This document shows, in pieces, positions 603 to 48,447 of a stretch of DNA of 64,000 nt. The number at the start of each line of letters is the position of its first letter. Position 1 is the first letter of the stretch. The notes beneath the pieces are model-generated. The model was given only the letters and a program-made list of their open reading frames with translations, was not told where the DNA came from and did not search any database. This DNA comes from Gammaproteobacteria bacterium. Its GTDB lineage: Bacteria > Pseudomonadota > Gammaproteobacteria > JABABF01. The stretch covers positions 1,469,043-1,533,042 of the forward strand of contig OZ250153.1 of assembly GCA_965237805.1 (NCBI GenBank), read 5' to 3'. A program made the position numbers and the translations under genes.

Positions 603-3641
<3,039 letters not shown>

Positions 3642-4387: not shown

Positions 4388-5412
4388 GGCGCGTGCGCCG
4401 CAACCGTCAGCGACCGTTCGCTCAGCCCGTTCTTCACAGCGCTGGCCAGACATCGTCGATGCCCCGGCGCGGGCGGCTCTTGAACCTCGCCTCACTACAC
4501 TGGCGGATCATGCGCGAGAGCCTGCAGCGGCTGGGTGCCACGCCGTTGCCGACCGTGCTGAGCTGCCTGACCATCGGCGTGGCACTGGCTTTGCCCACAG
4601 GCCTCTACATTGTGCTTGTCAACCTCGAAACACTGGGGCGCAGTTGGGAGCGCAGTGTCGGCGTTTCGGCATTTTTGCACCTCCATGTCGATGAGTCCGA
4701 CGGGCGGGAATTGGCGCGTCGCGTGGCTGAGTGGAGCGAGGTGGGGGAGGTCGAATGGCGCAGCGCGGAGGCTTCTTTAGAGGAATTTCGCACGTGGTCT
4801 GGCTTCGATGACATCCTCGAAGGGCTCGGGCAGAATCCGCTGCCCGCTGTGCTGTCTATCCAGCCCAAAGAAGCCTTTCCGAGCGCCGAGCGGATTGCGG
4901 CGTTGCGCGAGGCGCTGGCCGCTCTGCCCGCAGTGGAGGAGGCGAGGGTAGATTTGGAATGGGCGGAGCGCTTGCGCGAACTGACCCAGCTGGGCAGTCG
5001 TTTGGCCGCCGCCTTGGGGCTATTGCTGATGCTGGGGGTGCTGGTGGTGGTCTACAACGCCATCCGGTCGGCCATCGCGGCGCGGCGGCTCGAGATCATC
5101 GTTCTCCAGCTGGTCGGCGGCAGCCCGGCTTTTGTGCGTCGACCCTTTCTGTACAGTGGCTTGTGGTACGGCCTCGGCGGCGGCCTCTGCGCTTGGTTGG
5201 TGGTACAGGCAAATCTGGCTTGGCTCCGTGCTCCCGTCGAGCGTTTGGTCGATTTGTACGACAGCCAGTTCACGCTGAGCGGCTTCGGCTGGTATCCCAG
5301 TCTGCTGCTATTTGCCATCGCGGCCTCACTCGGCCTGCTGGGTGCTGGCTTCGCCGTCATGCGTCAAGTTGGGCATATCGGCTCGGAAAGCGAGGACGAG
5401 GCCAATTTCTAG
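4384..5412 (+). CDS. ftsX: Cell division permease FtsX
   Basis: ATGA overlap with ftsE. It has 4 TM segments with a large periplasmic loop, the usual FtsX topology, and sits in the conserved ftsEX-rpoH position. Confidence 0.8.
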   Translation: MRRVRRNRQRPFAQPVLHSAGQTSSMPRRGRLLNLASLHWRIMRESLQRLGATPLPTVLSCLTIGVALALPTGLYIVLVNLETLGRSWERSVGVSAFLHLHVDESDGRELARRVAEWSEVGEVEWRSAEASLEEFRTWSGFDDILEGLGQNPLPAVLSIQPKEAFPSAERIAALREALAALPAVEEARVDLEWAERLRELTQLGSRLAAALGLLLMLGVLVVVYNAIRSAIAARRLEIIVLQLVGGSPAFVRRPFLYSGLWYGLGGGLCAWLVVQANLAWLRAPVERLVDLYDSQFTLSGFGWYPSLLLFAIAASLGLLGAGFAVMRQVGHIGSESEDEANF

Positions 5413-8077: not shown

Positions 8078-9019
8078 TCAGCTGCCCCAGCGGAGCTGCA
8101 CCAAGCTTTCGCTGAGCTGCCACAGTCGCTCCGCCGCTTTATCTGAGCGAGCGTAGGCTTTGGTACGGCACACTGCACGATTGCGGTAATAGCCGCCGTT
8201 GGCACTGCTCAGCGCCGCTTCGGTGCACAGCCAGACAGCGGTGTCGGCACCCTGTGCCGGGCTGTTTGTCAACGGGCTGATCAGCCACATCGCCATCCGT
8301 GCGGGCAGACTATGACCGATGATGCCGCTGTTGACCACGCCCGGTGACATGGCGTTGACCGTGATGCTACTGCCTTTGGCTCGCCGCGCCAAGGCGTGCA
8401 TGAACAGCAGGCCGCACAGCTTGGCACGGCAATAGTTGCCGATGCTGAAGTAGGGCGAGCGATCGCGCATCAGGTCATTGAAGTCTAGGGACGGAGCCAG
8501 TCGGTGGGCGAGAGAGGAGATGACGATGATGCGTGCTGGAGCTGATGCCTGTAGCCGCGGCCACAGCAGGCCGGTGAGCAGGAATGGGGCCAAGTGATTG
8601 ACCGCTATGCTGGCTTCATGGCCCTCGGCACTGCGCTGCCGGGTGGCGAATAGGGCTCCAGCGTTGTGCACTAGCACATGCAGGGCTTGCCCGCTGTCTA
8701 AATAGCCTTGGGCGGCGCGCCGTAGCGCGGACAGCGACTTGAGATCGCAGCAGAAAGCTGCGGGTCGCTGTCCAGTCTCGTCGGCGATTTGTTGCTGCAC
8801 CGCTGCGATGCGACTGGCGTTGCGGCCGCCGACCACGACTTTGGCACCGGCCCGCGCCAGCGCCAAGGCGATTTCGCGCCCAATACCGTTGGTCGCACCG
8901 GTCACGAGACAGCTCTTGCCAGCGATGTCCCAAGGAAGGCGTATCACCCCACTGGTGTCCGCTAGCTGCCCCATCACCGATTTGCCGCTTCTGGGTGGTG
9001 CTTGTTCACCAGTTGCCAC
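8078..9019 (-). CDS. Short-chain dehydrogenase/reductase (SDR) family oxidoreductase, paralog 1
   Basis: TGATNGIGREIA Rossmann motif, NAG motif and catalytic YCRAK. Confidence 0.75.
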   Translation of the reverse strand: MATGEQAPPRSGKSVMGQLADTSGVIRLPWDIAGKSCLVTGATNGIGREIALALARAGAKVVVGGRNASRIAAVQQQIADETGQRPAAFCCDLKSLSALRRAAQGYLDSGQALHVLVHNAGALFATRQRSAEGHEASIAVNHLAPFLLTGLLWPRLQASAPARIIVISSLAHRLAPSLDFNDLMRDRSPYFSIGNYCRAKLCGLLFMHALARRAKGSSITVNAMSPGVVNSGIIGHSLPARMAMWLISPLTNSPAQGADTAVWLCTEAALSSANGGYYRNRAVCRTKAYARSDKAAERLWQLSESLVQLRWGS

Positions 9020-9103: not shown

Positions 9104-10021
9104 TCAGTCGCTCCAGCGATGATCGACCAAGTCTTCGCTGGCTTGCCACAGCTGCTCTGCGATCTCGTCCGAGCGGGCATCGGCGCGGGGCTTGTGTGGG
9201 GCGCGATTGAAGTAATAGCCGCCGTTGGCAGCGCTCAGCGCAGGGTCGGTGGCCAGCCAGACGGCGGTGTCGGCACCCTGTGCCGGGGTGCGCGCAAACG
9301 GTCGGAGCAGCGCCATCATCAGGCGCCCAACCCATTGTTTTCCAGCGAGTCCGGTGGCGACCAAGCTCGGGTGCATGGCGGTGACGGTGACGCCGCTGCC
9401 CTCGATGCGTTTTGCCAAGGCGTGTGTGAATAGCAGGTTGCACAGTTTGGAGCGCCCGTAGCTCTCCATATTGAAATAGAACGCTTGCTCGCGCATCAGG
9501 TCGTCGAAATCCAGTGACTTGCTCGAGCGGTGGGCATCGGAGGCGACGATGACAATGCGCGCCGGTGCCGATTCCTTGAGTCTGGGCCACAGCATGCAGC
9601 TGAGCAGAAAAGGTGCCAAGTGGTTGATAGCCATGCTGGCCTCATAGCCGTCGGCGCTGTGTTGCCGGCGGCCGAAGACGGCACCAGCGTTGTTCATCAG
9701 CATGTGTAGTGGTCGACTACTGTCCAAATACTCGTTGGCGGCGCGGCGCACATCCGCCAGCGAGTTAAAGTCGCAGCACATCGCATCGGGGCGTTGCCCG
9801 GTCTCGTCGGCGATTTGGTCTTGCACGGTCGCGCAACGTTCGGGGCTGCGTCCACCGATGACGACTTCGGCACCGGCCTTGGCCAGTGCCAAGGCGGCGG
9901 CACGTCCGATGCCATTGGTCGCACCGGTCACAAGGCAGACCTTGCCAGCGATATCCCACGCTGCCTCGGTCGTCTGTGCCGTCTCTTTGGGCTGTTCTGT
10001 CATCCGCTGTTTTCCTCGCAA
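9104..10021 (-). CDS. SDR family oxidoreductase, paralog 2 (tandem duplicate)
   Basis: TGATNGIGRAAA, NNAG and YGRSK motifs. It is ~65% identical to the upstream SDR over the full length. Confidence 0.75.
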   Translation of the reverse strand: MRGKQRMTEQPKETAQTTEAAWDIAGKVCLVTGATNGIGRAAALALAKAGAEVVIGGRSPERCATVQDQIADETGQRPDAMCCDFNSLADVRRAANEYLDSSRPLHMLMNNAGAVFGRRQHSADGYEASMAINHLAPFLLSCMLWPRLKESAPARIVIVASDAHRSSKSLDFDDLMREQAFYFNMESYGRSKLCNLLFTHALAKRIEGSGVTVTAMHPSLVATGLAGKQWVGRLMMALLRPFARTPAQGADTAVWLATDPALSAANGGYYFNRAPHKPRADARSDEIAEQLWQASEDLVDHRWSD

Positions 10022-10049: not shown

Positions 10050-11567
10050 TTATAGGGTAGCGCTGTGCTCTTCCAGCGCCAGCCGGTAGCCGAGTGCCTC
10101 CTGCAGATGGTGTTGCCGCACGGTTGCGACCGCTTCTAGATCGGCGATGCTGCGCGCCACTCGCAGCACGCGGTGGCAGGCGCGCGAGGACAATCGCATA
10201 CGCTCGGCGGCCAGCGCCAAGCAGCGTCGCTCGCCCGCTCCCAGCTGGCAGTACTGTTCCAATGCAGCTGGGCTCAGCTCGGCATTGGTGGCGTTGCGGG
10301 TGTGTTGGCGGCGGCGCGCCTCGGAGACGCGGGCTGCCACCTCGGCGCTGGATTCGATGCCCGCGCCGGATCCGAGCATTTGTTCTGGGTTGATGCGCGG
10401 CAGATCTACCTGCAGGTCGATACGGTCGAGTAAGGGTCCCGATATCCGCTGGCTATAGCGCCGCAGCTGCGCGCTACCGCAGCGGCAGCTGCGCTCGGCA
10501 TCGCCTCGGTAGCCGCAAGGGCAGGGGTTCATCGCCGCCACCAGCTGGAAACGCGCCGGGAAGTTGCAGCGTCGCTTGGCTCGTGCGATGCTGACAGCAC
10601 CCGATTCGAGCGGCTCCCGCAATACTTCGAGTACTCGGCGCGGAAATTCTGGCAGCTCGTCCAAGAACAGCACACCGTGATGCGCCAGCGATACCTCTCC
10701 CGGTTGCGGTGTCGAGCCGCCGCCGATCATCGCCGCCGCCGAGCTGGTGTGGTGTGGGGTGCGAAACGGCGGTTGATGCCAGTGCAGCGGCTCCACCGCT
10801 TCGCCAGCCACCGAGCGCAGTGCCGCCACCTCCAGTGCCTGCTCTCGGCTCAGCTTTGGCAACAGGCTGGGCATGCGTGTGGCCAGCATGGTTTTACCGG
10901 TACCCGGCGGTCCGACTAATAGGAGATTGTGTGCTCCAGCGGCGGCAATTTCTAAGGCCCGCCGTGCCTGTGCTTGACCGCGCACCTCAGACAAGTCTGG
11001 CAGCTGATGTGGTGGTGTGTTGGGCAGTGGCGGCGGCACGGCCCTAGGTAGCATGGCGGAACCGTGGAGTTGGCGACAGACCGTTGTCAGCTGGTCGGCC
11101 ACAAAGACAGCGGTTCGGTCGGCCATCGCCGCCTCGGCGGCATTGCCAACCGGCACGATCAGCTGCCGACCCGCATCCCCGCAGTGCAGGGCGGCTGGCA
11201 ACGTCCCCGGCACGTCTCGCAGAGCACCCGACAAGGCCAGCTCACCGAGTAATTCCCAGCCGTCCAGCGCTGCCACCGGCACTTGCCCCGAGGCGGCGAG
11301 GATGCCGATGGCGATGGCCAGATCGAAGCGCCCGCCTTCCTTGGGCAGGTCGGCCGGAGCCAAGTTGATGGTGATGCGGCGCGCCGGGAAATCGAAGCGC
11401 GTGTTGAGAATGGCACTGCGCACCCGCTCCCGACTCTCCCGCACTACAGTCGCAGGAAGGCCGACGATCGCTAGGCAGGGCAGGCCGTTTGACAGGTGAA
11501 CCTCGACCGTGACGAGTGGTGCACTGACCCCCTGGGCTGCACGCGAATTGACGATGGCTAATGGCAT
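10050..11567 (-). CDS. yifB: Mg-chelatase-like AAA+ ATPase YifB/ComM family
   Basis: N-terminal Lon-like domain (MPLAIVNSRA...), AAA+ Walker A (GPPGTGKTM) and C-terminal ChlI domain. ATG at 11567 is preceded by AAGGAGGG with a 5-nt spacer. Confidence 0.8.
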   Translation of the reverse strand: MPLAIVNSRAAQGVSAPLVTVEVHLSNGLPCLAIVGLPATVVRESRERVRSAILNTRFDFPARRITINLAPADLPKEGGRFDLAIAIGILAASGQVPVAALDGWELLGELALSGALRDVPGTLPAALHCGDAGRQLIVPVGNAAEAAMADRTAVFVADQLTTVCRQLHGSAMLPRAVPPPLPNTPPHQLPDLSEVRGQAQARRALEIAAAGAHNLLLVGPPGTGKTMLATRMPSLLPKLSREQALEVAALRSVAGEAVEPLHWHQPPFRTPHHTSSAAAMIGGGSTPQPGEVSLAHHGVLFLDELPEFPRRVLEVLREPLESGAVSIARAKRRCNFPARFQLVAAMNPCPCGYRGDAERSCRCGSAQLRRYSQRISGPLLDRIDLQVDLPRINPEQMLGSGAGIESSAEVAARVSEARRRQHTRNATNAELSPAALEQYCQLGAGERRCLALAAERMRLSSRACHRVLRVARSIADLEAVATVRQHHLQEALGYRLALEEHSATL

Positions 11568-11915
11568 GTTGCCCTCCTTGGCTAGTCCGTGCGCCCGACC
11601 TCCTGTCAAACGCGTCCAGTGGTGGTTTTGCTCCTGATATCGTTTGCGCTATTGCCCACTTCGCGCCGCCCGCATCATCTTGTGTTGGCCAGCATCCGCT
11701 TTGTGGAAGCGTTCCACAATTGGGGAATAGGGTAGCACAGTGGCTGGTGCCGATCGTTGGGCTTGACAGAGTCGATTGCACTCATTTAGAATTAATTGCA
11801 TCTGTAAGCGTTTGCCGATTTTCTTAGTGGCATCATTGCCGCCAAGGCAATTTAGCCGATCTTGTCAAGGGCTTGCAAATTGTCAGTTGTGGTTCCAGAA
11901 CCCTAATGCGGGGAA

Positions 11916-12764
11916 GTGGGACAAACATCTCAAAGGCTTGTGATTAGGGAGAACATCATGCTGAGCGTGACAAAGTTAATGGTTTGGAATGCCGATCGGT
12001 TGAGCGCGGGCTTGGGAGTGATCACCAGTCTCTGTCTTGGCCGTGGCTTAGGGGTGGGGCTGTGCCTGATGGCTGTGGCGATGTTCTCGCCCGCGCGCTC
12101 CGAGGCGCTCGCCTTAGGCGAGGAGGCAGACTTGCTGATCGAGGTGGTTGTGGTGAGCGACTATGTCTTCCGTGGCATCTCGCAGACTGGAGAAGATCCC
12201 GCTGTGCAGTTGAGCTTGGAGTTGGAATTGCAGGAGATCCCGGTATCTTTCGGCATCTGGGGCTCGCAGGTAGACTTTGACGATGTGGGCACTGGCACGC
12301 TTAGTCCGATCGATTACGAGCTCGACTTTTGGGTTCGTGTCAGCGTGCCTGTGTTCGAGGATCTCGATCTCGATTTCAGCATCATCCAGTACTACTATCC
12401 CAGCAGTACGGGGGACGAGGACTACACAGAATGGCTGATCGGCACTGAAGTGGGCAATGTTTATATCGAAGGGGTGTACAGCGAGGATTACGGCGGCCAA
12501 GGGGAGTTTTACCGCCTGAGCGCCGAGTATGTCCATAGCTTTGATGCCATCGATGTCGGTGTGCACTACGGTTGGAATCATTACGCCCGTCCGCAGTCCC
12601 TGCTCAATAACGACAACATCTATATGGATTGGGGTGTTTCCGCTTCGATTGAATGGTCCGGCATCAAGCTCGGTGTCGAGTATACCGATGTCAGCCGTTG
12701 TAGCGCAACTGGTGGCGATGCTTGCGATGCGAGAATGCTCGGCTCGATTTCTTATTCTTTCTGA
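11916..12764 (+). CDS. TorF-family putative outer-membrane porin (TIGR02001-like), signal peptide present
   Basis: Acidic beta-strand-rich protein with a signal peptide and a C-terminal ...SYSF, typical of the TorF beta-barrel family that commonly sits next to P-II genes. The true start is probably an internal Met. Confidence 0.5.
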   Translation: MGQTSQRLVIRENIMLSVTKLMVWNADRLSAGLGVITSLCLGRGLGVGLCLMAVAMFSPARSEALALGEEADLLIEVVVVSDYVFRGISQTGEDPAVQLSLELELQEIPVSFGIWGSQVDFDDVGTGTLSPIDYELDFWVRVSVPVFEDLDLDFSIIQYYYPSSTGDEDYTEWLIGTEVGNVYIEGVYSEDYGGQGEFYRLSAEYVHSFDAIDVGVHYGWNHYARPQSLLNNDNIYMDWGVSASIEWSGIKLGVEYTDVSRCSATGGDACDARMLGSISYSF

Positions 12765-12828
12765 AGTGATCTAATGCTGAGGCTGGACGACGGCTGAGTC
12801 CAAAGACAGATACCCCCAAGACCGACAC

Positions 12829-13179
12829 ATGGTGTTCTCTATGTATTTCATTATCGCGGTGATTAAGCCGTTTAAATTAGACGAAGTGCGTGCCCGCTTA
12901 TTGGAAGCCGGTATCAGTGGTCTGACTGTCAGCCATGTCGACGGCTTTGGCAATCAGCGCGGTTTGACAGCGAGCTACCGGGGACAAGAGTCTGCGGTAA
13001 TCATGCATCCAAAGATCAAACTCGAAGTTGCGGTCAGTGGCGATCAACTCGACAGCACCATTGCAGTGATCCAATCGGCGGCTAAAACCGGTGAGATCGG
13101 AGACGGCAAGATTTTTGTGTTGCCGATGCAACAGATGGTGCGCATTCGCACTGGCGATACCGGCTCAGACGCTTTATAA
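12829..13179 (+). CDS. Nitrogen regulatory protein P-II family (GlnB/GlnK-like), Tyr51->Ser variant
   Basis: IKPFKLDEVR..., T-loop GFGNQRGLTASYRGQES, B-loop TGEIGDGKIFV. The start is probably ATG 12841 (MYFIIAVIKPF). Confidence 0.8.
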   Translation: MVFSMYFIIAVIKPFKLDEVRARLLEAGISGLTVSHVDGFGNQRGLTASYRGQESAVIMHPKIKLEVAVSGDQLDSTIAVIQSAAKTGEIGDGKIFVLPMQQMVRIRTGDTGSDAL

Positions 13180-13309: not shown

Positions 13310-14107
13310 GTGGTCGAACTGGCCAAGAATTTCGTCGATTTTTGCTCCGATTTCCTGCTTCTGGGCCTGTCGCTTTGCGCTGTTGGTGGGCTGTTGCTGG
13401 CGTTGTGGAGCGCGGTGTCCCGCCGTTCATCGTGGCTGTTGGTGGTGGCTTGCTCGGCGCTGGCCTTGGGTGTGCTGGCAGTGGTCGGCGGCGCCGTTCC
13501 CCGCTTCGTCGCGCCAGCGGTGCATCGCTGGGAGGGGCGACATCCAGTTTTTGAGCGACCGATGCATTGCGTTTCCTTGGATGCGGCGGGCGAGCGCCGG
13601 GTCGTGGTGCTCGGCTCTGCTACCGATGACGAGCCAGCGCGACCAGCGCTCTCCCAGCTCAGCCGACCGAGCCTTGCACGCTTGGCCGAGGGCGTAGCCA
13701 TCTTCCGCAGCTGCGGTGCCGCGGCGATGTGGTTCACAGGGGATGCCTCTGCCCGGGTGTCGATGTTGGCGGCTGTGGCGCTGGGGGTGCCAGCAACGGT
13801 AGTGCACATCATGCCCGGTGGCGAGACCACGGCGACGGAGGCGGCGGTGTTGCGTCCTGTCTTGGGCGACGAGCCCTTTGTGCTGGTCAGCTCGGCGCTG
13901 CATATGCCGCGAGCGATGGCGCTGTTTGAGGCGCGCGGCATGGTGCCGGTGGCGGCACCCACCGACTTTCTTGGCTCGGCCACCCGGCCCCATCGTGCGC
14001 TATTGCCCAATGCCCGCAGCTACGAACTGTGGATGAAGTATCTGCACGAGCGCATCGGCCTGCTGTGGGCGCGACTCAACGGCGAGCTGGACTCAGCGCC
14101 TCAATGA
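13310..14107 (+). CDS. DUF218 (ElyC/YdcF/SanA family) membrane-anchored protein
   Basis: N-terminal TM helices followed by a DUF218-like core (VVVLGS..., LVSSALHMPRAMALF). Confidence 0.55.
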   Translation: MVELAKNFVDFCSDFLLLGLSLCAVGGLLLALWSAVSRRSSWLLVVACSALALGVLAVVGGAVPRFVAPAVHRWEGRHPVFERPMHCVSLDAAGERRVVVLGSATDDEPARPALSQLSRPSLARLAEGVAIFRSCGAAAMWFTGDASARVSMLAAVALGVPATVVHIMPGGETTATEAAVLRPVLGDEPFVLVSSALHMPRAMALFEARGMVPVAAPTDFLGSATRPHRALLPNARSYELWMKYLHERIGLLWARLNGELDSAPQ

Positions 14108-14795
14108 GGCGGGGCAGCTCGCGCCAGTGGCGTATTTCCCCATCCGGGCGCGGTGTGCCAAAGCGCCATGCCATGCCGTCGAAATTGGCCCAGATGGCAT
14201 GGCATCCAGCCTGCAGAGCCCCCTGTATATCGTCCTCTGGGCTGTCGCCGATATGGACGATCTGGTGGGCCTCAAGGCCAGCGCGGCGGCGCACGGCCTC
14301 GAAGGCGGTGCGATGCGGCTTGCCGTGTGGCAGTTCCTCGGCACGCAATGCAAAATCGAAATGGCGCGAGCAGGGCAGACGCCACAGCTCGGCGTTGCCA
14401 TTGCTCAGTGCGGCCAGCCTATAGTGTCGAGCCAACTGCTCCAGCACCGGTTCTGCACCGTCGTAGAGTCTGAGCTGGTGGCGCAGCTCAAGGAAGACGC
14501 CAAAGGCCGCCGCGGCTTCGAGACGACTCTGTTGTCGCGTGCGCCCGAAGTGGCGCAGCAATCGTCGCAACGACAGCTGCCGCAAGCGGCTGAGTTGGTG
14601 GCGCAGCTGCGGGCGGCACCGACTCAGGGCGATGCGTTGCTCGCGCAGGCTGGCGCTGTCCAGTTCCTCGGCGTGTTCTGGGAAACGCTCGCGCAACCAT
14701 TGCGACAATCGCTCATCGGCGCAGCGCAGGGTATGCTCTGTCTCCCACAGCGTGTTGTCGAGATCAAGGCAGATGAGGTGCAGCTGCTCGCTCAC
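14076..14795 (-). CDS. yigB: HAD-superfamily hydrolase (YigB-like)
   Basis: HAD motif I (ICLDLDNTLW) and motif IV (HIGDSPEDD). It is downstream of xerC as in the E. coli dapF-yigA-xerC-yigB cluster. Confidence 0.65.
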   Translation of the reverse strand: MSEQLHLICLDLDNTLWETEHTLRCADERLSQWLRERFPEHAEELDSASLREQRIALSRCRPQLRHQLSRLRQLSLRRLLRHFGRTRQQSRLEAAAAFGVFLELRHQLRLYDGAEPVLEQLARHYRLAALSNGNAELWRLPCSRHFDFALRAEELPHGKPHRTAFEAVRRRAGLEAHQIVHIGDSPEDDIQGALQAGCHAIWANFDGMAWRFGTPRPDGEIRHWRELPRLIEALSPARR

Positions 14796-14797
14796 CG

Positions 14798-15697
14798 CTA
14801 CCGCTTGCGTTGTGCTCTAGGGTGCGCGGCATCGTAGACCCGCGCTAAGTGGTCGAAGTCCAAGTGGGTATAGATCTGTGTGGTGGAGATGTTGGCATGG
14901 CCGAGCAATTCCTGCACGGCGCGCAGATCGCCGCTGGATTCCAGCAGGTGGCTGGCAAAAGAATGGCGCAGGGTATGTGGGTGTATACCCTGCGGTAGTT
15001 GCCGTTGCCGCCCGCGCAAGGCGCAGCGTTGCTGAATGGCGCGTGCGCTGATGCGCCTGCCGAGACGGCTCAGGAACAGCGCTTGGGATGACTCGCCAGC
15101 GCGCAGCTGAGCGCGTTGGGCAAGCCACAAGCGTAGCGCTGCGATGGCGGTGCCGCCGATCGGTGTCAGCCGCACCTTGCCTCCCTTACCCTGCACCCGG
15201 GCCAAGCGTTGCGACATGTCCAGATCGTCTAAGTTCAGCGCCCTCAGCTCGGCGAGGCGCAGACCGCTGGAATACATCGTCTCCAGCATCGCCTGATCGC
15301 GCACTTCCAGCCAGCTGGCACCCTCGCCGCCGCCGCGCAACAGCTGCCCGACCTGCTCTCGGCTCAGCGCATCGGGCAGGCGCTTGATGGACTGCGGCGC
15401 ACGGATGCCAGCGGTGGGATCTCGCTCAAAGTCCTCGTGGCGGATCAGGTAGCGGAACATCGAACGCAGTGCCGACAGGCTGCGTTGGATGCTGCGTCCA
15501 GAGCGGCCTTGGCGATGCATGGTCGCAGCAAAATCGCGCACCAAGATGGTGTCCACTTGCTCAATTTCGCGCACCCCCCGCTGTGCGCAGTGCTGGCGGA
15601 AGCATGCGAGATCGTGTTGGTAGGTGGTGCAGGTGGCCACCGCCAGTCGGCGGATATTGCGTATGTGGGCCAGAAAAGCCGCTATTGCCTGCTCCAT
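14798..15697 (-). CDS. xerC: Tyrosine recombinase XerC
   Basis: Phage-integrase fold with R...HxxR...Y catalytic residues (LRHSFASHLL..., TQIYTHL) and an N-terminal SAM-like domain. Confidence 0.85.
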   Translation of the reverse strand: MEQAIAAFLAHIRNIRRLAVATCTTYQHDLACFRQHCAQRGVREIEQVDTILVRDFAATMHRQGRSGRSIQRSLSALRSMFRYLIRHEDFERDPTAGIRAPQSIKRLPDALSREQVGQLLRGGGEGASWLEVRDQAMLETMYSSGLRLAELRALNLDDLDMSQRLARVQGKGGKVRLTPIGGTAIAALRLWLAQRAQLRAGESSQALFLSRLGRRISARAIQQRCALRGRQRQLPQGIHPHTLRHSFASHLLESSGDLRAVQELLGHANISTTQIYTHLDFDHLARVYDAAHPRAQRKR

Positions 15698-15704
15698 TGC
15701 AGTC

Positions 15705-16496
15705 CTAGCGCTGCCGGGTGGGCAATAGGCGCCCGATAATTTCGCCCAGATAGGATAGGAACAGAGTATCCATGCTGGATTGAAAACGCTCTGGATCCTC
15801 GCTACCCAGCGCCAGCACGCCGAGCAATTTATCGTCGTTTCCGCGCAATGGGGAGATGGCGACCGAACTGATCTGACGATTGGCCGGGAAGAGAAACTCC
15901 AGTGCTGGCTCGCTCAGGTTGCCGCACAGCGCCCGCTGTTCTTCGAATAGCTGGGGCAGAGTGGCGCGCGCTTGCTGTTCTGGTGCCACGCGCAATACAG
16001 TTTCCTCCCCTTCGGAGGCCTCGAATAGCAACAGGCTACAGGTGTCCACGCGCAATTCCTCGCGGCAGCGATCGTGCATTTGGCGATTGAACTCGTCGAG
16101 ATCGGTTGCTTCGATCAGTGCCAAGGCGATGTGGCGCACACTTTGGAATAGCGCCTCGTTGGCCTCTGCATTGGCTGTCAATTCTTCCAAGCGGCGGCGC
16201 AGGGTAGCGTTGCCCTGCTGCATCGCTTCGATGCGGCGGTCGGCCAGCTGCACCACTTGGCCGGAGTCGCTGCCCTTAGCTTTGGGCTCCACCAACTGCA
16301 GCTCGTCGAGTAGCTCAGGGTGGCGCAGCAGGAAATCGGGTTGGCGGCGCAGGTAGCCTGCGACCTGAGCTGCGTCCAATGGTGGTGGGGAGCCTTGTGT
16401 GGCGGTGTCAGCGCTGGACATGGTCATCAGTCTCCTAGTGCGACGCGGTATTTGATCAGTAGTGGTGGATGAAATGGCCGTGCATCTGGGTGGCAC
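15705..16496 (-). CDS. yigA: DUF484 (YigA) family protein
   Basis: Sits in the conserved position between dapF and xerC. It has a GAF-like C-terminal region. Confidence 0.6.
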   Translation of the reverse strand: MPPRCTAISSTTTDQIPRRTRRLMTMSSADTATQGSPPPLDAAQVAGYLRRQPDFLLRHPELLDELQLVEPKAKGSDSGQVVQLADRRIEAMQQGNATLRRRLEELTANAEANEALFQSVRHIALALIEATDLDEFNRQMHDRCREELRVDTCSLLLFEASEGEETVLRVAPEQQARATLPQLFEEQRALCGNLSEPALEFLFPANRQISSVAISPLRGNDDKLLGVLALGSEDPERFQSSMDTLFLSYLGEIIGRLLPTRQR

Positions 16497-22717: not shown

Positions 22718-23992
22718 TCAGATGAAGACATCGCTGTTGTCTTGCCCCAGCAGCATGGCACCGTAGTTGCGCGCAAAACTGGTCGGGTTGTTGGCCACGT
22801 GACTGCGGCTGGTCAGCAGATCCAAATAGGCTTGCTGGATGTCGCTGCCGAGGAAGACCGAGCGCCCGCCCGCCGTCGCGATCAGGGGCTGTGCTGCTGC
22901 CAGACAGCGAGCGACCACGATGGAGGCCTGATAGCGGTAGCGCGCGCGGACATCCATCGGCATTGCGTCGTCATTTTCGACGTACTGTGCGAGCCGCTCC
23001 ATATTGCGGTGCAGCATCATTGCCAGTTCGTCGACGGTATTGCTGGCGTGGGCGAGCAGCTCCTGCGTGGCAACATCTTCTGCCAGCTTGGTGGGGTCGC
23101 CACTGTGGCGGCTTTTGGCACCGTCGATGCGCAGCTCGACGATGCGCTTGAGCAGGCTGATCGGCGTGGTGGCCACGGCACGCACAAAGATCTGCCCCCA
23201 CGGGATACGGTAGACCGGATTGTCGTGGATTTTGTAGCCGGGATTGGTCAAATTGAAGCCATCCATTTGGTGGTGGGTGCGGTACTCGGGGACAAAGCAG
23301 TCCGCGACCACGATGTCTTTGCTACCCGTGCCCTGCAAGCCCATCACGTGCCAAGTGTCGTCGATCTTGTAGTCGGAACGTGGGACTAGGAAGGTGCGGT
23401 AGTGGGTATCGCCTTCATCGAAGACGAGCCCGCCGAGCAGGGCCCATTCGCAGTGGTCGCAACCACTGGACCAGCCCCAGCGTCCGCTGAAGCGGAAGCC
23501 GTCGTCGCAGCGCTCCACCTTGCCCATTGGCGCGTAGGAAGAGGAGACCAGCGTGTCGGGGTCGTCGCTCCACACCTCTTCTTGGGCGCGCTGATCGTAG
23601 AGAGCCAACTGGAAAGGGTGGACACCGATCACGCCGCAGACCCAGCCGGTCGCAGCGCAGCTCTCGGAGATCATCAGAACGAGCTGGCCGAAATCGGCGG
23701 GCTCCAATTCCAAGCCGCCGTAGCGTTGTGGCTGGAGCAGGCGAAAATAGCCAGCTGCTTTGAGCTCGGCGATGCTTGCCGCTGGCAGCATGCGCTGCTT
23801 GCGGGCGACGTCTGAGCGTTCCTGAAACTTGGGCAAAAGCGCCTCTACTGCCTCGTAGACCGCGTGCCGGGTGGCGGCCTTTTCATCGGGGTCGCGCACT
23901 GCTGTCTTCGCCACCGTAGCCATATTGCGCCGCCTCTCTGGCGTGTTTAACTCGTAGTTTTTAATTATCACCCGGTGCTTGGGGACTGTCAA
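22718..23992 (-). CDS. Acyl-CoA-dehydrogenase-fold flavin-dependent monooxygenase (HsaA/HpaH/group-D-like oxygenase component)
   Basis: 424 aa with ACAD N/M/C domains but the monooxygenase-type substitutions (WGWSSGCDH..., C-terminal 4-helix domain), as in two-component flavin hydroxylases. Confidence 0.55.
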   Translation of the reverse strand: MTVPKHRVIIKNYELNTPERRRNMATVAKTAVRDPDEKAATRHAVYEAVEALLPKFQERSDVARKQRMLPAASIAELKAAGYFRLLQPQRYGGLELEPADFGQLVLMISESCAATGWVCGVIGVHPFQLALYDQRAQEEVWSDDPDTLVSSSYAPMGKVERCDDGFRFSGRWGWSSGCDHCEWALLGGLVFDEGDTHYRTFLVPRSDYKIDDTWHVMGLQGTGSKDIVVADCFVPEYRTHHQMDGFNLTNPGYKIHDNPVYRIPWGQIFVRAVATTPISLLKRIVELRIDGAKSRHSGDPTKLAEDVATQELLAHASNTVDELAMMLHRNMERLAQYVENDDAMPMDVRARYRYQASIVVARCLAAAQPLIATAGGRSVFLGSDIQQAYLDLLTSRSHVANNPTSFARNYGAMLLGQDNSDVFI

Positions 23993-35690: not shown

Positions 35691-37232
35691 TTATACGTTC
35701 CGGCTGGTGCTGATCAGGTACTCGGTCTTGGTTGCGACTGGTGGATAGAGTTCGTCCAGCGGTGCAGAACGACCATTCTGTTGCACTTGACGCGCATGGG
35801 AGCGCCGCAGTTCACGTGCCTCCCGGAGCCCACAAGAATGGGCGATGACCTGCACCTCTTTGATAGTGTTGCGAGCGTAGTGCGCTACGCGTTGCGCTTT
35901 GGCCTCGGGTACCAAGCCGTTTTGCAGGCGCTCATTGTGGGTTGTGATGCCCGTTGGGCAAGTGTCGCGGTTGCATTGCAATGCTTGGATGCAGCCCAAG
36001 GCGAACATGAAGCCGCGTGCCGAGCTGATGAAGTTGGCACCCATGCACAGCGCCCAAGCGATGGAGCCCGGGGTGATCAACTTGCCCGAAGCGATGATGC
36101 GGATTTCTTCGCGCAGACCGTATTTTGTCAATATGTCCACAGCCATCGGTAGGCTCTCGCGTAACGGCAGGCCGACATAGTCCATCAGGCTTTGCGGGGC
36201 GGCACCGGTGCCGCCGTCGGCGCTGTCGATGGTGATGAAGTCAGGTGCCGATTCGATGCCTCGCTGGTGGATAGCCTCCATCAATTCGTGCAGCCACCCT
36301 TGGCCGCCGAGCACGGCCTTGAAGCCCACCGGTCGACCCGTGACCGAGCGCACCCGTTCGATCATATCAAGCAGCTCTGCCACCGAGCCGATATCCAAGT
36401 GCGCGTTGGGGCTACGCGAATCCTCGCCCGCGGGGATGCCGCGGATCGAAGCGACTTCTGGCGTCACCTTCAGCCCGGGCAGGATCCCGCCTTTGCCGGG
36501 CTTGGCTCCTTGGCTCAGTTTGATCTCGAACATGCGCAAGCGCTCGTATTGCGACAGTTCGCGCAATCGCTCATCTGATAATTGACCGTGTTCGTCGCGC
36601 ACGCCGTACTTGGCGGTGCCGATCTGGTAGACCAAGTCGCAATCGCCGTCACGGTGGTAGGGGGACATGCCGCCCTCGCCAGTATTCATCCAGATGCCAG
36701 CCTCGTGCGCCCCTCCCGCCAGCGCCTGCACGGCTGGCTTTGATATGGCACCGTAACTCATGCCAGAAATGTTGAACAGTGATTTGGCGAGGTAGGGGCG
36801 CTGGGCGCGCCCAGCGCCGATTTCCAGCGCTGAGATATCACTGGTTTCCTCGGCTTGGAGCGGGAAAGGGCTATTCATGAACAGTACTTCGCCCAGCACG
36901 TTGAGTCGGCGCGTGCTACCAAAGGCGATGGTGTTGTCGTGGTTTTTGGCGGTGCGGTAGGCCCAGCTGCGCTCGGAGCGGTTGAATGGCATCTCTTCGC
37001 GATCCATGGCGAAGAAATATTGGCGGAAGAATTCTCCCAGCTCCTCGAAGAGATAACGGAAGCGGCCGATGACAGGGTAGTTGCGCCGCACGGCGTGGCG
37101 CGTCTGTGTCACATCGACGATGTACATATAGGTGACTGTCAAGATGCCGACACCGATTAGGAAGATCAGCAGGTAGACAGACCATCGTATGAAATCGAAT
37201 ATAAACGTTTCCATCGGAGTGTTTCTCCCCAC
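35691..37232 (-). CDS. FMN-binding glutamate-synthase-domain family protein (GltS large-subunit domain-2-like), N-terminal TM helix
   Basis: Homologous throughout to the FMN/Fe-S domain of glutamate synthase (…GEGGMSPYHRDGDCDLVYQIGTAKYGV…, …KLSQGAKPGKGGILPG…). GTG start 37232 or ATG 37214. Confidence 0.7.
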   Translation of the reverse strand: MGRNTPMETFIFDFIRWSVYLLIFLIGVGILTVTYMYIVDVTQTRHAVRRNYPVIGRFRYLFEELGEFFRQYFFAMDREEMPFNRSERSWAYRTAKNHDNTIAFGSTRRLNVLGEVLFMNSPFPLQAEETSDISALEIGAGRAQRPYLAKSLFNISGMSYGAISKPAVQALAGGAHEAGIWMNTGEGGMSPYHRDGDCDLVYQIGTAKYGVRDEHGQLSDERLRELSQYERLRMFEIKLSQGAKPGKGGILPGLKVTPEVASIRGIPAGEDSRSPNAHLDIGSVAELLDMIERVRSVTGRPVGFKAVLGGQGWLHELMEAIHQRGIESAPDFITIDSADGGTGAAPQSLMDYVGLPLRESLPMAVDILTKYGLREEIRIIASGKLITPGSIAWALCMGANFISSARGFMFALGCIQALQCNRDTCPTGITTHNERLQNGLVPEAKAQRVAHYARNTIKEVQVIAHSCGLREARELRRSHARQVQQNGRSAPLDELYPPVATKTEYLISTSRNV

Positions 37233-37286
37233 TCAGGCAGCGGTCGCTTGGCACTCAGGCAGCGGTCGCTCGGCACTCAGGCGCTG
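37231..37286. repeat. 22-bp direct tandem repeat x ~2.5 spanning glnA stop / downstream gene start junction
   Basis: actcaggcagcggtcgcttggc | actcaggcagcggtcgctcggc | actcaggcgctg. On the coding (minus) strand each unit ends ...GCCTGA|GTG, which repeats the stop-start junction. Confidence 0.8.
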
Positions 37287-38690
37287 TAGTACATCTCGAA
37301 TTCTGCCGGATGTGGCGAGCCCTGCAAGCGATCGGCTTCTTCGGTTTTCAGGTCGATGTAGGAATCGATCAGCGTCTCGCTGAAAACACCACCATCCGTC
37401 AGGAAGGCGCGATCCTCGTGCAATGCGTCCAGCGCCACCCGCAAGTCGGTGGCGACTGTGGGGATGTGGCTGAGCTCGGCATTTGGGTCGTAGAGGTTGC
37501 GCTCCTCTGGGGCACCCGGGTCGATTTTGTTTTTGATGCCGTCCAAGCCGGCCATCAACAGGGCGGCAAAGCACAGATAGGAATTGCCGCTGGCATCTGG
37601 GAAACGCACCTCAATACGACGGGCCTTGACCGAATCGACATATGGGATGCGCACAGCCGCCGAGCGGTTGAGCCCGGAATATGCGAGATGGATCGGTGCC
37701 TCGAAGCCCGGCACCAAACGCCGGTAGGAGTTGGTGGTGGCGTTAGCGAAGGCATTGAGCGCCCGCGCATGGCGGAAGATGCCGCCGATATAGTAGAGCG
37801 CTATTTGTGATAGTCCGGCATAGAGCTCGCCAGCGAACAGGTTCTCGCCATCTTTGAATAGAGATTGGTGGCAGTGCATGCCATTGCCGTTGTCATCCAA
37901 CAGCGGCTTCGGCATGAAAGTGGCGGTCTTGCCATAGGAGTCGGCGATGTTGAGTGCGCAGTATTTGAAGATTTGCAACTCATCGGCTTTTTGCGTCAGG
38001 GCACTAAAGCGCATGCCGATTTCACTCTGGCCACCGGTGGCCACTTCGTGGTGATGCAGTTCGGGTACCAAGCCCATTTCGCTGGCGGCCTTGCTGATCG
38101 CGCAACGCAGATCGAATAGGCTGTCGACTGGCGGCACCGGGAAATAGCCGCCCTTTGGTGCTGGCCGATGGCCGATGTTGCCCTCTTCCAGCTCGTCGCC
38201 GGATTGCCAGTGCCCCTCATCGGAACGGATGGCGTAGAAGCTGCCGCCTGTGCTAGTCTTCCAACGGACATCGTCAAAGACAAAGAATTCTGGTTCCGGA
38301 CCGAAGAAGGCCTGATCGGCGATGCCGCTACCACGCAGGTATTCCTCGGCGCGCAGCGCGGTGTGGCGCGGGCAGCATTCGTAGGGTTCAATACCGCTTT
38401 TGCCAGTGGGTTCCGCCACATTGCAGCGCAGGTTGACGGTGCTCTCCTCGGTGAAAGGGTCGAGCACGGCGCTGTCGTCGACGGGCATTAACAACATGTC
38501 GGATTGGTGAATTTCCTTCCAGCCAGCGATGGAGGAACCGTCGAAAGAGAAGCCGTTTTCGAACAGGGCTTTGTCCCAGGCGCTACCGGGTAGGGTGACA
38601 TGCTGCTCTTTGCCGCGCAGATCGGTAAAGCGGAGATCCACCCACTGCGCGTCGTGGTCTTGGATCAATTGCTGGGTTTTGCTGGACATT
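37277..38690 (-). CDS. glnA: Glutamine synthetase type I
   Basis: [35 protein letters not shown]-terminus, ATP-binding ([17 protein letters not shown]) and adenylylation-loop region. ATG at 38690; the 38 upstream codons in the ORF track are non-homologous. Confidence 0.9.
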
Positions 38691-38937
38691 TTCTCTATAC
38701 TCTCGGTCGATCTGACTGGTGGTTGGGTCATCGGAGCAGGATCAAGGCTGGTGGGATGCGATGATCGCTTGGGCGGATTGATAACGATTGGCAATGTGGA
38801 CACTCGATCCCTGTGATCCGCCTCGGCTCAGGCTCGCAGGCAATGTAGGCTGCTGGCCAAACTGAGGGACACTACCAACTAATAATTGTAGTCCCCGTCG
38901 GCAAGATGCGCAAGAACTTCAGGCTAATATAGCCGCT

Positions 38938-44823: not shown

Positions 44824-47800
44824 ATGCTGACCACTGCGCTTACCGTATCCAAAGCGTGGAGTTTTTGGATCGACCGCGGGGGCACTTTCACGGATGTGGT
44901 GGCGCGTGCCCCCGATGGCCGTCTGCACGTGCGCAAGCTGCTGTCGGACAATCCGACCCAATACGATGATGCGGTGCTTGAGTCGCTGCACGAGCTGCTG
45001 GGGGTGGCGCGGGGACAGCCCCTGCCAGCGGCGCGCTTGGCAGCGCTACGCTTTGGCACTACCGTCGCCATCAATGCCCTGTTGCAACGCAGCGGGGAGC
45101 CGCCAGCGCTGCTGATCACGCGCGGCTTTGGCGATGCCTTGGCGATCGGCTACCAAGATCGCCCGCGGCTATTCGATTTGGCCATCGAGCAAGCGCCGCC
45201 GCTCTACGCCCGCGTCGAGGAGCTGCGCGAGCGCATCGCCGCCGACGGCAGCATACTCGAGCCGCTGGACGAGGCGCAGTTGCACCGGCAGCTGGCCTCA
45301 CTGCGGGCAGCTGGCATCCGCTCGCTGGCCATCGTTTTGCTACACAGCTGCACCCAGCCAGCGCACGAGCGGCGCGCAGCGCAGCTGGCGACCGAATATG
45401 GCTTTGAGCATGTGATCCAGAGTCATGTCGTGATGGCGTTGGCCAAGCTGGTGCCGCGCGGTGATACGGCTGTCGCAGATGCCTATCTGCAACCGGTGTT
45501 GGATCGCTATCTCGGCCGCCTTGGCGCTGCTTTTGACGGCGAGCTAGCTCCCGGCAAGCTGTTGTGTATGCGCTCGGATGGCAGCTTGGTCGACTGGCAC
45601 GGTTTGTCTGGCAGCAATGCCGTGCTGTCGGGACCGGCGGCGGGAGTACTGGCCACCCAAGCGGTGGCGCATCGCTCCGGTCGCGAGCGCTGTGTCGGCT
45701 TTGATATGGGAGGCACTTCCACCGATGTCTCGATCTGCGATGGCCGCTTCGAGCGCGAGCTGGAGACGGTGGTGGCCGGTGTGCGCCTGTGCACGCCGAT
45801 GCTGCCAGTGCATACGGTGGCGGCGGGTGGCAGCTCACTACTGCGCCGTCGCGATGGGCGTCTACAGGTCGGCCCCGACAGCGCCGGTGCCGACCCCGGC
45901 CCAGCCTGCTATCGCAATGGCGGCCCGCTATGCCTCAGCGATGCCAACTTGCTGTTGGGCAATGCGGTTGCCGAGCACTTTCCCGCCGTGTTTGGCCCGG
46001 CGGCCGATCACATCCCAGAGTTGGTGCTGGCGCGCGCTGGCTTCGAGCAATTGGTCAAAGACTATGGCGACGGTCAGTCGGCCGAGCAGCTGGCGGCGGA
46101 TTTTGTCGCGGTGGCAGAGGCCAAGATGGCGCGGGCTGTGCGTCGGGTCTTGCTCGACCATGGCCACGATCCCAGCGACTGGTCGCTGTGTTGTCTCGGC
46201 AGTGCCGCCGGGCAACATGCCGCCGCCGTCGCCGAATTGCTCGATATCGACGAGGTGTTGTGTCATCCGCTGGCCGGGGTGTTGTCGGCTTGGGGGATGG
46301 GCTTGGCAGAGCTGCGCGACGAGCGCGTCACCACCGTGCGCGAGGGCTTGGACGATGACTGTCTCGGCCGTTTGGCTGTCCAGGCGGCGGACATGGGGCG
46401 ACAGCTGGGGGATGCGCTGTGTCGGTGCCACAGCGCATCGCTTGCACAGCTGTCGCAGCGCTGGCTGTTGCGCTGTGCTTACCGCGGTACAGATGGCGAG
46501 ATAGAGTTGCAATGGGATGGCCGTGCCGGTGCCGAGGCACTGGTGGCAGAGTTCCAGAGCCGCCACCAGCAGCGCTTTGGCTATAGGGAAGCCGATGCCT
46601 CGGTGGTGGTCGTGCTGCTCAGTGTGCAGATGCTGTTGCCGGGCAGTGACGACTTGGCATGGGTGCAGAGCGATGCGGGGGGCGCGACCGCCGAGTCGGC
46701 ACCGCTGTTTGTCGACGGCGCATGGCGCGAGGTGTCACTGTTGCGTCGCGCCAGCTTAGCGTCCGGTTTCTCGGCCGATGGTCCCTTGCTGCTAGCTGGC
46801 GAGTTGGACATGGTGGTGGTGCGTTCCGACTGGCAGCTGCAAGTGGAAGAGAACGGCCTGTGCTGCCTGCGCCGTCACCGCCGCAGCGCCATCCGGCGGC
46901 AGCGCGGCGACCGCGATCCGGCGCTGTTGGAGATATTCAATCATCGCTTCATGGGCATCGCCGAGCAGATGGGTGCCGTGTTGCGCTCCACGGCGCGTTC
47001 GCTAAACATCCGCGAGCGGCTCGACTTTTCCTGTGCGCTATTCGATCGCGACGCCGCGCTGATCGCCAATGCCCCGCATATCCCAGTGCATCTGGGGTCG
47101 ATGGGCGGTGCCGTGCGTGCAATTGCCGAGCGTTGCGCCGAGCAGCTGATGCCGGGCAGTGCCTTCGCGCTCAACGATCCCTATTTGGGAGGCACCCACC
47201 TGCCCGATATCACTGTGGTGATGCCGGTGTACGATGGGCGGGGACGCCTGCTGTGCTTCACCGCCGCGCGTGGGCACCACGCCGATGTCGGCGGCATCGC
47301 GCCGGGTTCGATGCCAGCCGACTCGCGCGATATTGCCGAGGAGGGGGTGCGCCTGCGCGGCGAGCCCTTGCTGCTTGATGGCCACTTCGACCATGCTGGC
47401 CTGCGCCAGCGCCTGAGTGATGGACCGTGGCCAGCGCGTGACCCAGAGCAGAACTTGGCCGATTTGCGCGCCCAGCTAGCTGCCTGTCACCGCGGGGCGC
47501 AGGAGGCGCTGCGGGTATTCGACGAGTACGGGAGCGCTACGGTGTGGCGCTATATCAACTTCTTGTTCGACAGCTCGGCGGCGCAGCTGCGTCGAGCTTT
47601 GGTGCGCTTGCGTGGGGGCGCTTTCAGTGCGCCACTTGACAATGGCGCTAAGATTGCGGTGCATGTGTCGCTACATCAAGGGCGCGTGGTGATGGATTTC
47701 AGCGCCAGCTCGGCGCAGTGCGAGGACAATTTCAACGCGCCGTTGCCGGTGTGCCGTGCTGCCGCGCTCTATGTGTTGCGCACTTTGATCGGCGGCGAGT

Positions 47801-48447
47801 TGCCGCTAAACGAGGGTTGTCTGCAGCCTTTGGAACTGATCGTCCCGCCGGGCTCTGTGCTCAATCCGCAGCCGCCGGCAGCGGTGGTGGCTGGCAATGT
47901 CGAGACCAGTCAAGTGGTGGTTGACACCCTCTATGCGGCACTCGGCATCATGGCGGCCTCGCAGGGGACGATGAACAACCTGAGCTTTGGTGATGACAGC
48001 TGTCAGTACTACGAAACGCTTTGTGGCGGCACTGGTGCCGGTGCTGATTTCGATGGTGCCAGCGCTGTGCACAGCCATATGACCAACTCCCGCATCACCG
48101 ATCCAGAATTGCTCGAAGCGCTCTATCCGGTTCGGCTGGAGTGTTTTGCTAGGCGCCGCGGCTCTGGCGGTGCCGGGCACCGCATCGGCGGCGATGGCGT
48201 GATCAGAGAATTGCGCTTCCTGCGAGCCTTAACTGTTTCCGTGCTCGGTGGCCGCCGCCGGCACGCGCCCTTTGGCTTGGCCGGTGGTGCGCCGGGGGCG
48301 GCGGGGCGCAATCTGCTGTGGCGTGCGGACGGCAGCCTACATATAATTCCGTTTCGGGCACGCTTGCAGCTCGCCGTTGGTGATTTGTTGCGTGTGGAGA
48401 CCCCTGGTGGTGGCGGTTTCGGGGCTGCCAAGGAGTGCGACGGGTGA
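44824..48447 (+). CDS. 5-oxoprolinase / N-methylhydantoinase, fused HyuA-HyuB (1207 aa)
   Basis: Hydantoinase_A N-terminus ([15 protein letters not shown]...) and Hydantoinase_B C-terminal half (…[17 protein letters not shown]…) in one polypeptide. Confidence 0.8.

Follow-up and report, generated by a model that had tools for sequence, protein, structure and literature searches.

The T-loop is the part of P-II proteins that touches nearly every known target. Among Proteobacteria, the described operon closest to the locus presented here is nlmA-glnK-amtB of Herbaspirillum seropedicae, a three-gene, NtrC-dependent operon whose first gene is induced by nitrogen limitation and whose NlmA product was found in membrane extracts (PMC3023670). 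It resembles the TorF-glnK-amtB loci with a sigma-54 motif that we find in Burkholderiales and Gammaproteobacteria, and NlmA may itself be a TIGR02001/TorF member; this type of operon is already known, at least from Herbaspirillum. The modifying enzyme GlnD is encoded by glnD, a gene described as ubiquitous in Proteobacteria, and P-II proteins without covalent modification are common outside the Proteobacteria and Actinobacteria (PMC4285133). Archaeal, Firmicutes, and plant P-II proteins have no usable GlnD site, and their signaling is thought to rest on ATP, ADP, and 2-oxoglutarate alone (PMC4285133). A GlnK protein with a Tyr51Ala change was no longer uridylylated and kept its response to nitrogen status (PMC4285133, PMC4274968). 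Here, we analyze a P-II gene and its neighborhood in a 64,000-nucleotide (nt) stretch of a gammaproteobacterial genome (GenBank assembly GCA_965237805.1, contig OZ250153.1, positions 1,469,043 to 1,533,042), referred to below as the window.

The window P-II shares with proteobacterial GlnK, as exemplified by Escherichia coli, a length of 112 amino acids (aa), a gapless alignment, the chromosomal position, the ligand contacts, the B-loop, R47, and Y46. Unlike proteobacterial GlnK, it has no Tyr51, no adjoining amtB, and no sigma-54 motif, falls under the equivalog cutoffs, and carries R38N, K34D, E32H, H42L, A49Q, D54I/V, F55M, L56H, and K85E. It resembles the archaeal, Firmicutes, and plant proteins in lacking a usable GlnD site, but those form separate phylogenetic groups, whereas the window P-II sits inside proteobacterial GlnK synteny. 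In contrast to the H. seropedicae operon, the window locus has neither amtB nor a sigma-54 motif. The locus is orthologous to TorF-glnK-amtB, amtB is absent from the site, one promoter motif has been swapped for another, and the P-II protein has a remodeled T-loop, is under purifying selection, and keeps its ligand-contact residues. We consider it probable that this protein is a GlnD-independent P-II that responds to effectors only, has a changed target, and derives from the orthologue in a TorF-glnK-amtB operon. Judged from three sequences, what is new is a narrow proteobacterial lineage whose GlnK orthologue has lost Tyr51, its amtB neighbor, and the sigma-54 motif, and whose loop has been rebuilt and stabilized again.

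An orthologous TorF-glnK-amtB site without amtB

The locus contains the following features, given as window positions:

10050 to 11609, minus strand: comM/yifB (Mg-chelatase-like AAA ATPase; TIGR00368, 613 bits), the divergent upstream flank and a synteny anchor; the true start is probably near 11567
11763 to 11792, plus strand: sigma-70-type promoter motif TTGACA-18-TAGAAT, 11 of 12 consensus matches, 165 nt before the TorF ATG
11958 to 12764, plus strand: TorF/TIGR02001 (Gcw_chp) outer-membrane porin, 268 aa, called from family matches, ribosome-binding site plus ATG, and an AlphaFold barrel
12841 to 13179, plus strand: P-II, glnK positional orthologue, 112 aa; alternative ATG at 12829
13310 to 14107, plus strand: gene for a DUF218 (ElyC/SanA-like) membrane protein, with a Pfam DUF218 match and a weak ElyC match
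14076 to 16496, minus strand: HAD hydrolase, xerC, and a DUF484 gene, the downstream synteny anchor, followed by dapF and lysA

The loci of the two known relatives, L001 and L002, have the same order of comM, TorF, P-II, DUF218, HAD, xerC, DUF484, dapF, lysA, rho, and trx, with comM and the genes from HAD through lysA on the minus strand, and the TorF/P-II pair is conserved in both. The closest TorF outside this three-member clade, at 34% identity, belongs to Microbulbifer agarilyticus, where the order is comM(-), ubiK-like(-), TorF, P-II, AmtB, P-II, sutA, DUF484(-), dapF(-), and lysA(-). By scanning GTDB species genomes with a broad TorF alignment, we obtained 80 comparison loci from Microbulbifer, Porticoccus, Halieaceae, metagenome-assembled genomes (MAGs) of Pseudomonadales, Alkanindiges, and Burkholderiales (Rhodoferax, Polaromonas, and Piscinibacter). 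Enough downstream sequence to judge was present in 74 of the 80, and a P-II gene follows TorF within 600 bp on the same strand in 64 of these 74. AmtB comes after P-II in 59 of the 64, and comM, divergently oriented, precedes TorF in 59 of the 64. Many of the gammaproteobacterial canonical loci carry HAD-xerC-DUF484 downstream of amtB.

The flanks of the window P-II match those of glnK in the Microbulbifer, Halieaceae, and Pseudomonadales loci, with comM and TorF upstream and HAD-xerC-DUF484-dapF-lysA downstream. The window P-II is a positional orthologue of glnK, and the locus is the orthologous TorF-glnK-amtB site; because the comM and HAD-xerC-DUF484 flanks are the same, the window represents this locus minus amtB. 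AmtB was found neither in the 64-kb window nor in L001 or L002, and tblastn at E <= 1 recovered no amtB remnant downstream of P-II. The canonical amtB slot, which often also holds a second P-II gene, is occupied by the DUF218 gene in the window, L001, and L002, and a DUF218 gene was not found in the 80 canonical loci. No intrinsic terminator was found 3' of the P-II gene in the window sequence, so that P-II and the DUF218 gene may be cotranscribed. Xenologous replacement of glnK was also considered and is unlikely, as the flanks are orthologous and the best-matching proteins beyond the clade come from Proteobacteria.

The sequence-only reading had described the P-II gene as paired with TorF rather than with amtB, pointing to a dedicated P-II subclass with the porin as an unknown outer-membrane functional partner in place of AmtB. 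The TorF-P-II adjacency in all three clade members and the purifying selection on both genes are consistent with such a partnership. However, the co-occurrence, although real across the comparison loci, is with a canonical GlnK that has Y51, so it is not particular to the S51 form and the pairing is older than that form: adjacency to TorF is the usual front of a three-gene operon that continues with amtB. Because this adjacency is normal in canonical amtB-bearing loci, TorF is an inherited operon neighbor and not evidence that P-II and the porin act together. Direct contact is moreover topologically excluded, as P-II is cytoplasmic and TorF, with its signal peptide, is predicted to form a 12-strand barrel in the outer membrane. 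We give the partnership scarcely any credence.

Several variants of the operon occur among the comparison loci. A second P-II gene directly after amtB is present in many canonical loci (for example, L007, 7585 to 7920), L025 (5022 to 6239) has TorF-glnK-amtB and then a second TorF-P-II pair, and L038, L054, and L065 have two tandem glnK-amtB pairs. In L036 (5719 to 8659) and L049 (5772 to 8022), from Pseudomonadales/gammaproteobacterial MAGs, what comes after TorF-glnK is either a luciferase-like monooxygenase or sutA plus threonine synthase. L060, labeled as a Flavobacterium sp. MAG, shows the proteobacterial comM/TorF/glnK/HAD/xerC synteny, and its bin may be contaminated. Possible data-quality issues are a frameshifted P-II in L020 (5793 to 6127) and a comM split into two open reading frames (ORFs) in L002 (1557 to 3074). 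In the window, comM adjoins tandem short-chain dehydrogenase paralogues that are 59% identical (8078 to 9019 and 9104 to 10021, minus strand); the paralogue pair is kept in L001 and L002 and was not seen beside comM in L003, the sole canonical locus whose flanks were listed.

A rebuilt and conserved T-loop on a core with its ligand-contact residues kept

The window P-II matches Pfam P-II (PF00543) at 91.5 bits against a cutoff of 25, and scores below the NCBIfam equivalog cutoffs for both GlnK (NF007946; 124.9 against 181) and GlnB (NF008111; 115.8 against 202). From the ATG at 12841, its 112 aa align with E. coli GlnB and GlnK gaplessly at 50 to 51% identity, and its best match among solved structures is Azospirillum brasilense GlnZ (PDB 3MHY, E = 3e-37). 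The gapless alignment bears out the residue-for-residue correspondence to GlnB/GlnK, with Ser at position 51, that had been read from the window: K9, Q39, Y46, R47, E50, and K58 are in register, the B-loop TGEIGDGKIF covers residues 83 to 92, and no Tyr is placed at the T-loop apex. Ser51 is shared by the window P-II and its two close relatives, P0003 and P0004. An alignment artifact is ruled out by the gapless alignment and a sequencing error by the recurrence of S51 in P0003 and P0004, which come from independent assemblies.

In Methanococcales GlnK, the nucleotide is contacted by T29', residue 38 (Ile), Q39, G87, D88, K90, residue 64', R101', and R103', with F92 stacking on the adenine, while the contacts to 2-oxoglutarate are made by the Q39 and G41 main chain together with the residue 9 and K58 side chains, and the Q39 side chain bridges to Mg (PMC8395244). 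The window P-II keeps K9, T29, Q39, G41, K58, A64, G87, D88, K90, F92, R101, and R103; P0004 carries Q9 instead of K9. Since archaeal GlnK proteins have Ile38, which touches the nucleotide through its main chain (PMC8395244), R38N need not abolish ligand binding. The proposal that this P-II senses 2-oxoglutarate and ATP is consistent with the side-chain ligand contacts, all of which are kept, although calling it a subclass overstated three sequences from one narrow lineage. In the clade, R47, Y46, and G48 are kept as well, as is E50 in two of three members; R47 is the residue that plugs AmtB in the E. coli complex (PMC6243067).

The T-loop, by comparison, has been rebuilt. As a canonical set we used 64 full-length TorF-linked P-II proteins from two proteobacterial classes (Gamma- and Betaproteobacteria). 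All 64 have Y51, and 62 share one identical T-loop sequence from which the other two differ by one to three residues. The clade instead has the loop SHVDGFGNQ(R/K)GL..YRGQ(E/A)S.V(I/V)MHPK. The canonical set has 64 positions with a conservation of at least 95%; the clade P-II differs from it at 16 of them, and 12 of the 16 differences fall within residues 32 to 56 (E32H, K34D, R38N, H42L, E44A/P, L45S/R, A49Q, Y51S, V52A/S, D54I/V, F55M, and L56H); the four outside the loop are K85E, E106D, K2, and T5. The sequence-only reading had caught Y51S, but that the whole T-loop and not Y51 alone had been rebuilt went unnoticed. All three clade members share nine derived residues (H32, D34, N38, L42, Q49, S51, M55, H56, and E85). 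Median identity between canonical proteins is 100% over residues 32 to 56 and 74% over the scaffold, and between clade and canonical proteins it is 44 to 52% and 55%, respectively; within the clade, identity is 76 to 88% in the loop and 68 to 79% in the scaffold.

An alternative is that the protein has been decaying under relaxed selection after the loss of amtB, with Y51S as one of many neutral changes. The absence of amtB from the locus, the scores below the GlnK and GlnB equivalog cutoffs, and the identity of 49 to 59% to canonical TorF-linked P-II proteins, whose median pairwise identity is 79.5%, would all fit such a history. Against it, the three independent assemblies hold intact 112-aa ORFs, the nine derived residues recur in every member, and all side-chain ligand contacts are kept. 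The ratio of nonsynonymous to synonymous substitution rates (dN/dS) of P-II within the clade is 0.05 to 0.11, with dS near saturation. Because dN/dS is low and the clade members resemble one another in the loop no less than in the scaffold, we read these alignments as showing a T-loop that is derived, fixed, and now conserved rather than decaying, and we regard decay as highly improbable.

A different kind of modification could also have taken over, with Ser51, or Ser52 or Ser45 nearby, being phosphorylated in the manner of cyanobacterial Ser49. T-loop serine phosphorylation does exist in Synechococcus and Synechocystis (PMC4285133), and S51 is present in all three members of the clade and S52 in two of them. 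However, the loop does not carry the RYRGSEY motif of cyanobacteria, neither a kinase nor a PphA-like phosphatase was seen close to the locus in the window, L001, or L002, and the argument is purely one of analogy. We see only a slim chance that such a switch operates here.

Exchange of promoter motifs and nitrogen-control context

Sigma-54 motifs were called as TGGCAC-N5-cTGC with at least 8 of 10 matches and fixed GG and GC, within 300 nt upstream of TorF. Such a -24/-12 motif precedes TorF in 56 of 62 canonical loci, whereas the rate in random 310-nt windows drawn from these loci is 9.6%. None was found between comM and P-II in the window, L001, or L002; in a relaxed search of the comM-to-P-II interval, the best site matched at 7 of 10 positions and its -12 element was incorrect. 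The clade members instead carry the window's sigma-70-type motif and TTGACA-17-TAGAAT and TTGACA-17-TAATAT in L001 and L002, located 165 to 272 nt before the TorF ATG. The 194 kb scanned contain only five sigma-70 sites that match at 10 or more of the 12 positions, three of which are these clade TorF motifs, with 0.04 expected in the three intergenic regions, and a match of at least 11 of 12 at the same place was found in 0 of 64 canonical loci. The change from a sigma-54 to a sigma-70 motif had not been spotted when the locus was read from the window alone. It is consistent with an expression that may have become constitutive.

As the sequence-only reading had placed them, glnA (37277 to 38803) and a GltS-domain protein (35691 to 37232) lie on the minus strand of the window. 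The latter, which comes directly after glnA, is a glutamate-synthase FMN-domain protein that stands alone (513 aa, corresponding to GltB residues 861 to 1165); next is a CPA1 antiporter, and ntrBC does not follow. Upstream of the window glnA no sigma-54 motif was found, and TTGCGC-17-TACAAT is readable by eye; GlnA keeps the NLYD adenylylation tyrosine. Elsewhere in the window, two perfect 10-of-10 sigma-54 core matches (TGGCAC-N5-TTGC) occur on the plus strand, at 4580 to 4594 inside ftsX, about 880 nt before an rpoH-like gene, and at 22756 to 22770 at the 3' end of a minus-strand acyl-CoA-dehydrogenase-like ORF. As roughly 0.1 to 0.2 perfect cores would be expected by chance in 128 kb (our own rough estimate), RpoN may still be in use somewhere in the genome.

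The TorF porin

The window TorF matches the NCBIfam "TorF family putative porin" (TIGR02001) at 100.5 bits against a cutoff of 47.15 and Pfam Gcw_chp (PF09694) at 58.2 bits against a cutoff of 24. The gene is present on the plus strand as first noted, but the GTG at 11916 then taken as its start is probably too early: AGGGAGA-N5-ATG, common to the window, L001, and L002, favors the ATG at 11958, from which the 268-aa product equals the database entry P0123. Its N terminus has a signal-peptide-like hydrophobic segment ending in SEA/SSA, and its C terminus ends in YSF with a terminal Phe. An AlphaFold model built from a 29-sequence alignment is a 12-strand beta-barrel with a mean predicted local distance difference test (pLDDT) score of 80, and of at least 90 across most of the barrel. 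The model resembles the 12-strand channels NanC (PDB 2wjq), the KdgM-family VhGalP (8xua), and PcoB (7pge), with target-normalized template modeling (TM) scores of 0.68, 0.60, and 0.58, respectively; at 8 to 13% sequence identity, the likeness is one of fold only. Within the three-member clade, TorF dN/dS is 0.13 to 0.22.

We know of no structure or substrate for any member of the TorF family. Literature searches on TIGR02001, Gcw_chp, and PF09694 returned no papers, and a search for TorF together with glnK and amtB returned none that was relevant. Since TorF sits in a glnK-amtB operon bearing a sigma-54 motif in many genomes, a role in the passage of small nitrogen compounds suggests itself, and the TorF of the ancestral operon most likely helped ammonium or some other small nitrogen compound to cross the outer membrane when nitrogen was limiting.

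Another nitrogen-related context of the family is seen in L005 (6001 to 8044) and L006 (4080 to 6123), where a more distant TorF homologue lies between two amidohydrolases upstream and alanine dehydrogenase downstream. In L004 (6001 to 6946), the gene after a TorF homologue is not P-II; only its first 52 aa are present before the contig ends, and this N terminus resembles a signal peptide plus a first membrane helix; an Amt protein may here come directly after TorF.

A rarely sampled lineage

Among 5.8 billion clustered proteins, the only close relatives of the window P-II are P0003 (77% identical) and P0004 (71%); the next matches are ordinary GlnK-like proteins at 60 to 64%. A profile search of 1.84 billion cluster representatives returned no S51 or N38 among the best 150, and the 147 T-loops read have Y51 in 144 cases and F51 in 3. 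A DNA-pattern scan of JGI metagenomes for HVDGFGNQ gave 40 matches, none in a P-II gene, and a scan of the GTDB r232 species representatives with the clade TorF alignment gave 85 pattern matches and no relatives. The window ParC has a single relative at 76% identity, all others being at most 61% identical and spread over Nevskiales, Chromatiaceae, Thiohalobacter, Arhodomonas, and Halieaceae. The source organism is a poorly sampled gammaproteobacterium of a deep lineage.

Genes of the gamma-glutamyl cycle are also present in the window, namely a gamma-glutamyltranspeptidase (603 to 2507, minus strand) and a fused HyuA/HyuB 5-oxoprolinase of 1207 aa (44824 to 48447, plus strand). The ATP sulfurylase encoded at 57206 to 58405 on the plus strand has a PUA-like domain at its N terminus (Pfam PUA_2 plus ATP-sulfurylase). 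This PUA_2-ATP sulfurylase and the nearest named relatives of ParC (Thiohalobacter, Thioalkalivibrio, and Chromatiaceae) hint at a sulfur-oxidizing lifestyle.

A model for a retargeted P-II and its significance

In the model that we favor, an ancestral TorF-glnK-amtB operon with a sigma-54 motif would have been flanked by comM and HAD-xerC-DUF484. In one deep and seldom sampled lineage, amtB would then have been lost, with the DUF218 gene taking its slot, and the sigma-54 motif before TorF would have given way to the near-consensus sigma-70 motif, from which the genes are probably expressed. The GlnK orthologue would have had its loop rebuilt at 12 positions, including Tyr51, the only GlnD modification site. 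The resulting P-II is predicted to remain a trimer that binds ATP or ADP and Mg-ATP-2-oxoglutarate in the clefts between subunits. Because the sole acceptor Tyr51 is gone, it should not be able to take the glutamine signal from GlnD, and signaling would proceed through effector-driven T-loop conformations alone. As the loop change is both large and conserved, we argue that the new loop surface contacts one or more changed targets. TorF would have been retained as a small, cotranscribed 12-strand outer-membrane channel.

The target may instead have stayed the same with only its tuning altered: amtB, and possibly glnD and glnB, would be encoded elsewhere, and a modification-free GlnK, like those of Archaea and Firmicutes, would plug AmtB through R47. 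The retention of R47, Y46, and G48, and of E50 in two of the three proteins, is compatible with this explanation, as is the finding that GlnK-AmtB regulation works without Tyr51 modification (PMC4274968, PMC4285133); TorF-glnK without amtB in the operon is also known from other lineages (L036 and L049). However, because canonical loci without amtB keep the canonical loop, the loss or relocation of amtB from the operon alone is not what drove the remodeling. Twelve substitutions at invariant positions, moreover, exceed what the loss of one modification site would need, and the missing sigma-54 motif suggests a wider uncoupling from Ntr control. On balance, we think it unlikely that the target is unchanged.

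Several observations weigh against a GlnD-independent P-II with a changed target and against the history that we propose for it. A canonical GlnB/GlnD system may exist elsewhere in the genome, and, since R47 and Y46 are kept, the protein may still act as the plug of an AmtB from another locus. In four canonical loci, too, P-II is not followed by amtB, yet the T-loop is canonical, and two of the four, L036 and L049, keep the sigma-54 motif as well. Near the nucleotide site, the window P-II carries R38N, H42L, and K85E, which may alter effector affinities unpredictably: in the P-II proteins of Rhodospirillum rubrum, the need for Mg- or Mn-ATP in uridylylation is influenced by positions 42 and 85 (PMC3480911), and because both are changed here, affinities may be shifted. 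In 10 of the 74 informative loci no P-II follows TorF, L005 having alanine dehydrogenase there, and the 80 loci represent the top matches to a single TorF subfamily, so that the proportions derived from them hold for that subfamily and not for all of TIGR02001. The promoter assignments are consensus matches, not transcription data.

A bolder version, which we put forward tentatively, is that this GlnK has left the Ntr/GlnD/AmtB circuit and become constitutive and modification-free, and that its rebuilt and selected loop recognizes a new receptor, for which the DUF218 membrane protein would be one candidate, or has come under control by Ser51 phosphorylation. If true, this would be a natural case of P-II retargeting by T-loop redesign in which the effector-sensing core is kept.

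For the P-II family overall, the absence of Tyr51 is unsurprising, and the clade comprises three members. The lineage nevertheless offers a natural experiment: a near-invariant loop was rebuilt at 12 positions and then held by selection, while the GlnD site, the adjacent transporter gene, and the nitrogen-regulated promoter motif disappeared. The case shows how a P-II sensor can uncouple from one circuit and possibly attach to another, and as a lead toward a new P-II target it should be of moderate interest to P-II specialists. The widespread arrangement of a divergent comM next to TorF-glnK-amtB with a sigma-54 motif points in addition to a testable role of the uncharacterized TorF/TIGR02001 porins in nitrogen scavenging across the outer membrane.

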